A stretch of DNA of 64,000 nucleotides, taken from assembly GCF_044324875.1 (NCBI RefSeq), contig NZ_CP172185.1. The stretch is one strand, 5' to 3'. The notes under the pieces are model-generated. The model was not told the DNA's origin, searched no databases, and saw only the letters and a program-made list of their open reading frames with translations. Positions 43,222-43,723 of the stretch are shown piece by piece. A program made the position numbers and the translations under genes. Positions within the stretch are counted from its first letter, which is position 1. Each line of letters opens with the position of its first letter. Origin of the DNA: Escherichia coli. Lineage in GTDB: Bacteria; Pseudomonadota; Gammaproteobacteria; Enterobacterales; Enterobacteriaceae.

Positions 43222-43723
43222 ATGAACAACACAGACTCATTAGAAAAAATAATCAAACATCAACAAAACAACGATCCAAAATACCCCTGCCAGGAGCATC
43301 TGTTGATACAACTCTGTATCCGCGTAAACAAAAAAAATACAGGATAATATATCGAGTTTACTCAGTGGATATGGAATAAATTATTCAACATATATGGTTC
43401 TTACCATATTATCCACAGCAGATAATCATTGTCTTTCGCCCTCAAAGATAAGCAGAGAACTCCAGTTTACCAGAACAAACATTACCCGCATTACAGATTT
43501 TTTAGAAAAAGCAGGGTATATAGAAAGAACTGATAGCAGAGAGGATCGCCGTGCTAAAAAAATCAGTCTGACATCAGATGGTCTGTCCTTTATTCAGAAC
43601 GTCAATATTGCACAAAGTCTGCACCTGAAAGAAATCTGGAGCCCGCTGACCCATGTAGAGTGTGAACTGTTTGAAGACATTAATAAAAAATTACTGACGC
43701 ATATTGCTGATGTGTGTCCCTAA
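43222..43723 (+). pseudogene. MarR-family regulator resembling the PapX/SfaX/FocX group, frameshifted in an A8 tract
   Basis: ORF MNNTDSLEKIIKHQQNNDPKYPCQEHLLIQLCIRVNKK stops at 43345; the +1 frame continues as IQDNISSLLSGYGINYSTYMVLTIL...TRTNITRITDFLEKAGYIERTDSREDRRAKKISLT (winged helix); A8 run at 43330-43337. Confidence 0.65.

Follow-up and report, generated by a model that had tools for sequence, protein, structure and literature searches.

The window, by which we mean the whole 64,000-nt stretch of Escherichia coli DNA analysed here (contig NZ_CP172185.1 of RefSeq assembly GCF_044324875.1), carries at positions 43222–43723 two short open reading frames (ORFs) that together correspond to one regulator of the PapX/SfaX/FocX type, a family to which we refer as X. 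Its features and those of the DNA immediately upstream are as follows.

40167..42592, minus strand: IS66-family element (tnpA, tnpB and a frameshifted tnpC), upstream of the IS3 remnant
42748..42969, plus strand: IS3-family transposase remnant (integrase core with an internal stop), from the annotation of strain 135
43042..43080, plus strand: predicted, retained proximal promoter of the X gene, from alignment to papX of strain 536
43042–43047, plus strand: predicted -35 element TTGACC, from the papX alignment
43067–43072, plus strand: predicted -10 element TTTTAT, from the papX alignment
43222..43723, plus strand: frameshifted orphan X-family (PapX/SfaX/FocX-like) MarR regulator gene, 166 aa if the tract is A7, from ORFs and homology
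43222..43347, plus strand: ORF1, 41 codons, regulator residues 1–38 followed by NTG and a stop (the product ends in VNKKNTG)
43330..43337, plus strand: A8 homopolymer with a +1 insertion, A7 in 40 of 45 related complete genomes
43394..43723, plus strand: ORF2, 109 codons, regulator residues 58–166 (most of the winged helix and the C-terminal helices)
43656..43656, plus strand: C-to-T change (Ala145Val) that marks the sub-lineage of the window allele

Positions 43330–43337 read exactly AAAAAAAA, with a C before and a T after the run. ORF2 lies in the +1 frame relative to ORF1, and the window has no uninterrupted coding sequence for the regulator, since the frame changes at A8 and runs into a stop after codon 41. 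Removing one A yields a single 501-nt ORF of 166 aa without an internal stop, and relatives with seven A's accordingly read AAC AAA AAA ATA (N K K I) at this point. Adding two A's restores the frame as well, while A9 or A6 lead into the third, dead frame. The original prediction, that A8 at these positions splits a 41-codon from a 109-codon ORF and that the loss of one A fuses them into a regulator of roughly 165 aa, is thus borne out by the sequence and the ORF calls. We found no second inactivating lesion in the window copy; its sole further change is the Ala-to-Val substitution at 43656, and intact A7 copies with the same T exist. Together, the two small ORFs make up a single broken gene; their frames and homology rule out a chance arrangement. 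No Shine-Dalgarno sequence was found in the sequence upstream of the ORF2 ATG.

A split of this kind could in principle be bridged, with RNA polymerase or the ribosome slipping on A8 and restoring the frame at a low level. A runs are slippery for both E. coli RNA polymerase and tRNA-Lys, and there are published A-run frameshifts, from E. coli strains and, for A8, from other organisms, that transcriptional slippage rescues (PMC1088944). The window gene resembles these cases in having a +1 A insertion in an A run of an E. coli gene, but the documented runs are of nine A's and are rescued by insertion, whereas the run here has eight and could be rescued by a deletion or by inserting two A's. The required change is -1 or +2, since a single insertion (A9) gives the wrong frame; homopolymer slippage in E. 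coli, however, consists almost only of single-base insertions, and homopolymers are the starting point of less than 1% of transcription deletions (PMC5574713). In most genomes, selection against slippage becomes visible once runs reach 9 nt (PMC1088944). AAT, the 0-frame codon that follows the run, would not be a slow codon of the sort that promotes a +1 ribosomal shift, and the split arrangement is not conserved, the majority allele being the unsplit A7 form. We therefore regard a leaky or recoded gene as very unlikely.

The repaired 166-aa product matches the Pfam MarR families PF01047 (E = 4.9e-12, residues 52–111) and PF12802 (E = 2.6e-11), and its closest solved structures in the PDB are all MarR-family proteins. 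Aligned to PapX of strain 536, it shows 72% identity over 161 residues without gaps, and the two proteins do not differ at all in residues 80–99 and 103–118, which form the predicted recognition helix and wing. At the nucleotide level the gene is ~80% identical to papX and sfaX in more than 1300 genomes. Its proposed identity as a PapX/SfaX-like MarR regulator was therefore confirmed, both by the PF01047 match and by the alignment to PapX that had been suggested as a check. A PapX-specific model was not found in NCBIfam, where the best match was MprA with 123 bits against a cut-off of 157, so that the naming of the family rests on pairwise identity. RefSeq calls the intact alleles (WP_001066241.1 and WP_001066242.1) MarR family transcriptional regulator, and their relatives at 80% identity papX or sfaX. 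Compared with its sister X genes (papX and a second orphan type), the gene has a dN/dS of 0.25–0.32, from which we conclude that the orphan X gene was functional and under purifying selection in the past.

An AlphaFold2 model of the repaired product (mean pLDDT 78.5) places helices at residues 24–49, 54–65, 73–80, 84–96, 118–139 and 144–164 and strands at 100–103 and 113–116. This layout, with a long N-terminal helix (24–49), a winged helix-turn-helix (54–96) with its wing (100–116), and C-terminal helices (118–164), is that of the MarR fold. The frameshift at codons ~37–39 falls inside the modelled N-terminal helix, and ORF2 begins inside helix 54–65. Given the position of this break and the missing Shine-Dalgarno sequence of ORF2, neither the ORF1 nor the ORF2 product should be able to form a MarR dimer. 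We also considered ORF2 as a truncated but functional protein and rejected this, as it would have no N-terminal helix, would begin only part-way into helix 2, and has no Shine-Dalgarno sequence.

Among known X-family genes, papX and prsX are the closest points of comparison. They share with the window gene the MarR-type winged helix, the length class, the identities given above, and ~170–190 bp of homologous upstream DNA that includes the mapped proximal promoter (PMC6246914). In contrast, PapX is encoded by the last gene of the pap operon and is a shown repressor of flhDC, whereas the window gene has no fimbrial operon and is frameshifted. The general statement of the original prediction that such regulators repress motility holds for PapX and FocX, both of which repress flhDC and motility (PMC6246914). 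The genes for SfaX and FocX differ from the window gene in being the 3'-terminal genes of the sfa and foc operons, in being intact, and in having the equivalent of the tract interrupted. More similar in setting is the 746-type orphan X gene (WP_001301088.1), which likewise has no fimbrial neighbours and is flanked by IS elements, with 86% nucleotide and 81% protein identity; it is, however, intact, lies in another island context (adjoining the malX/PTS region), and reads AAC AAG AAA at the tract, so that it has no A7 run. In papX the corresponding sequence is AAT AAA AGA. VatX provides a further example of an X-family MarR gene outside any fimbrial operon, but it is 44% identical to PapX, linked to the vat autotransporter, and without an effect on motility (PMC6246914).

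papX and focX have been reported to possess an independent promoter, whose spacer measures 19 bp and from which transcription starts 144 bp before the ATG (PMC6246914). The similarity of the window to the pap locus ends about 170–190 bp upstream of the start codon and thus includes this region, with the A at 43080 corresponding to the transcription start mapped for papX/focX. The 19-nt spacer between the predicted -35 and -10 elements runs into a T7 run at 43064–43070. On sequence grounds, the promoter may still function at the window locus. A sigma-70 consensus scan, which covered spacers of 16–18 nt only, gave no X promoter, the spacer of the candidate being 19 nt. The T7 run is itself polymorphic, with T6 in five of the compared loci (L026, L028, L032, L037 and L038) and TTCTTTT in strain 135, L016 and L030, as in papX; among near-identical islands, the promoter spacer is therefore either 19 or 18 nt long.

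The X gene lies on an island that starts at ~26548 in the window, adjoining glnH/dps. The island contains an integrase, EcsC, yebF, dolP, a sitA remnant, IS66 and the IS3-family remnant; after these come the X gene, a conserved hypothetical gene (44395–44820), and the iol myo-inositol operon. The upstream IS3 fragment noted in the original prediction is confirmed by PGAP, which annotates a truncated 'integrase core domain-containing protein' at the equivalent of 42748–42969 in the identical DNA of strain 135 (coordinates carried over from L001 with an offset of 23099). The remnant ends ~80 bp upstream of the point where the similarity to the pap locus stops. Further upstream, the IS66 element forms the junction at which island architectures diverge. 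The gene is not the last gene of a chaperone-usher operon: its neighbours are the IS66 element and IS3 remnant on one side and the hypothetical gene and iol on the other, and no fimbrial genes are annotated in about 40 kb around it or in the roughly 40 contexts examined. The neighbourhoods in related genomes hence agree with the description of the gene as an orphan without fimbrial genes, adjoining IS remnants.

Several other properties of the island were recorded. The same island (≤4 SNPs per 11.9 kb) occurs at four chromosomal sites, namely after glnH/dps, ycjD, gcvP and zntA, with the glnH/dps site common to the window and strain Br_112_kylling. Its left junctions lie at 26548–26569 in the window and at ~5859, ~3521, ~5663 and ~5664 in L001, L008, L009 and L010, respectively. 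Each junction consists of a slightly variable 22-nt GC-rich motif, GTYCCCTCNCYCCTYTGGGGAG, followed by identical island DNA. This pattern suggests that the tyrosine integrase of the island targets a dispersed, boxC-like chromosomal repeat and not a tRNA gene. An IS21-family insertion (ISSso4-like istA/istB, 33929–36569) is present in the window island and absent from the other four finished copies. At ~38591–39651 (coordinates carried over from L001), the island has an intact sitA and, after it, a truncated remnant of sitB with fragments of transposases, which together look like a sit iron/manganese transporter that decayed inside the island. The hypothetical gene on the plus strand at 44395–44820 encodes a 141-aa protein (WP_000009634.1) that is always found between the X gene and iolB, separated from the X gene by a 630-bp AT-rich spacer; it has no PHROG match and no Pfam match on record. 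An Rfam scan of both strands of 42000–46000 gave no RNA family, and a literature search for the E. coli iol island together with MarR or the X gene returned nothing relevant.

To compare the tract among related strains, as the original prediction had proposed, we used 5426 complete E. coli genomes and defined the allele family by ≥98.9% identity (n = 45). The tract lengths do differ: 40 of the 45 genomes have A7, the remaining five (strains 135, TUM9803, HCM-27C-1, PK-F-10122 and JML285) have A8, and no other length occurs. RefSeq/PGAP annotates the A7 copies as intact and enters those with A8 as pseudogenes under the name 'MarR family transcriptional regulator, frameshifted'. In four of the five finished A8 genomes, the allele is the Val form (43656T) and sits on the sitA-type island of the window; all four have kept A8, although they differ in chromosomal site and country. 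We additionally looked up exact sequences in about 15 billion proteins, with counts given as contigs. The two intact Ala alleles were found on at least 1000 contigs each and the intact Val allele (A7 with T at 43656) on 53, compared to 384 for the 41-aa ORF1 product, 701 for the Val form of the ORF2 product, and 722 for its Ala form. Within the Val sub-lineage, A8 copies therefore exceed A7 copies by about 13 to 1. Products expected from A6, A9 or A10 were not found among the about 15 billion proteins.

These counts also bear on whether the extra A is real. Long-read assemblies often misjudge homopolymer length, and two lesions seen in single assemblies may be errors of this type. One is a 2-nt deletion (-AG) at codon 24 in UWVO01000001.1 (L034; 5,031,721 bp), which is possibly the same strain as CP035884.1 (L011; 5,031,715 bp), where the X gene is intact; the other is a +G at the same place in L033, an assembly with many fragmented genes. 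Both are probably assembly errors and call for caution when lesions are counted. The A8 allele, in contrast, recurs in five genomes that different laboratories finished, as well as in short-read assemblies (NCBI, ENA and Logan), its 41-aa and 109-aa products occur on 384 and 701 contigs, and its distribution tracks lineage and not sequencing platform. A sequencing or assembly error in the window homopolymer is accordingly extremely improbable.

The window falls into a shallow Val sub-lineage, in which copies differ by 0–2 SNPs per 11 kb and whose central haplotype occurs with both A7 and A8. Each tract length is found in both the sitA-type and the IS256/YaiO-type upstream architecture, and each is found with both states of site 43066, so that the four-gamete test fails. 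The failed test and the occurrence in both architectures imply that, within the Val sub-lineage, the tract changed independently at least twice or recombination took place; one of these changes could be a reversion. A further A8 is found in JML285, a member of a different, large lineage whose haplotype is distant (53–64 differences in about 11 kb). This lineage, identified by the Ala form of ORF2, has A7 and a nonsense mutation from TCA to TAA (Ser55stop) at the equivalent of 43386, and JML285 gained its A8 later, in an already dead gene. The loci of the Ser55stop lineage are L032, L035–L039 and L007/L031, and its 109-aa leftover ORF has been deposited under names such as 'transcriptional regulator'. 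We considered a single origin of A8 and rejected it, given the distant haplotype of JML285 with its older nonsense mutation and the failed four-gamete test in the Val sub-lineage. In Br_112_kylling, the closest A7 relative of the window with the island at the same dps site, the gene was lost by a change from T6 to T5 at 43498. The orphan X gene has thus been knocked out repeatedly and independently, by different mutations. Counting both lineages, we infer that the tract length switched between A7 and A8 at least three times independently; the A run is a hot spot of mutation.

The original prediction had left open whether the locus is a decayed pseudogene or a slipped-strand switch of an orphan regulator. 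In homopolymer contingency loci, such as those of Haemophilus, Neisseria and Campylobacter, tracts show a spectrum of lengths, heterogeneity within cultures and high switching rates, and are maintained by selection. The window gene is similar in that a mononucleotide run within the ORF sets the frame (A8 out, A7 in) and close relatives differ in its length. A reversible toggle of an orphan motility repressor would also fit the presence of both lengths among near-identical islands, the repeated changes indicated by site 43066 and the two architectures, the further independent A7-to-A8 event in JML285, and the otherwise intact window copy with its retained promoter sequence. Unlike contingency loci, however, the tract shows two lengths only, with A6, A9 and A10 products absent among thousands of contigs, and its state tracks lineage: A8 is found in the window and in each of the four finished Val-island genomes, although countries and insertion sites differ. 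The A8 of JML285 arose in a gene that was already dead, which shows that its origin was mutational and neutral, and other lineages carry the irreversible lesions described above, with the product of the nonsense allele on 722 contigs. Nor is the tract conserved in the paralogues. Phase variation in E. coli normally relies on DNA inversion or Dam methylation and not on short A runs.

The rate of change points in the same direction. Set against about 20 substitutions in 11.1 kb, at least two tract events correspond to roughly 1000 times the average per-site rate. Converted with the E. coli substitution rate, this would put tract changes at around 1e-7 per generation. Classical phase variation proceeds at far higher rates, and a value such as this is what A/T runs in general typically show. 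Taken together, a slipped-strand contingency switch is unlikely. Of the two alternatives of the original prediction, the pseudogene allele is thus favoured (A8 is lineage-stable, only A7 and A8 exist, irreversible lesions occur elsewhere, and the tract is interrupted in sister genes), and a fast switch found no support. An invariant tract with further lesions downstream, the outcome that the prediction had named as speaking against it, is not what we observed, as the tract varies and the window copy has no second lesion.

We consider it likely, with a probability of about 0.8, that the locus is a stably inherited loss-of-function (null) allele of a dispensable orphan X-family regulator on a mobile iol island. 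According to this explanation, the working gene would be the A7 form. Its 166-aa protein would dimerise via its N- and C-terminal helices, bind DNA via the recognition helix and wing that are identical to PapX, and, by analogy with PapX, repress flhDC and motility. Replication slippage would have added one A (A7 to A8) at about codons 37–39, so that no more than 41 codons would be translated before a stop partway through the N-terminal dimerisation helix, and the other 109 would be stranded without a ribosome-binding site. The target flhDC, the loss of X-mediated repression, and the neutrality or advantage of this loss are presumed parts of this account.

Three points run counter to the null-allele reading. 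Since it has no second lesion and retains the promoter sequence, the window copy is one slip away from function. A7 and A8 share one haplotype within the Val sub-lineage, and one of the changes between them could be a reversion. Furthermore, the excess of A8 of about 13 to 1 could reflect selection on the OFF state instead of neutral decay. As an alternative, the A7/A8 run may act as a slow, selected toggle, in which loss by a single slip is repeatedly favoured in some hosts and reversion stays available; the excess of A8 and the mainly poultry origin of the finished A8 genomes would fit such a toggle. If such a toggle existed, a mobile inositol-utilisation island would have its own evolvable control over host motility; we rate this as improbable.

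Under the preferred reading, that of a null allele, the practical consequence concerns annotation: the locus should be recorded as one broken gene and not as two proteins, while some submitters have deposited it in public records as 'PapX protein' (41 aa) and 'prsX' (109 aa). Beyond annotation, the finding matters little. The A8 frameshift is already flagged by public annotation and is not a new kind of element, and only the repeated independent loss of the orphan X gene on the mobile iol island is uncommon. The locus also illustrates that orphan regulators of the X family occur on non-fimbrial islands. Each of the five finished A8 genomes has a single X-gene copy and no second X gene. As no other X gene is present, these A8 carriers represent natural knock-outs that could be used for testing the targets of the orphan regulator.
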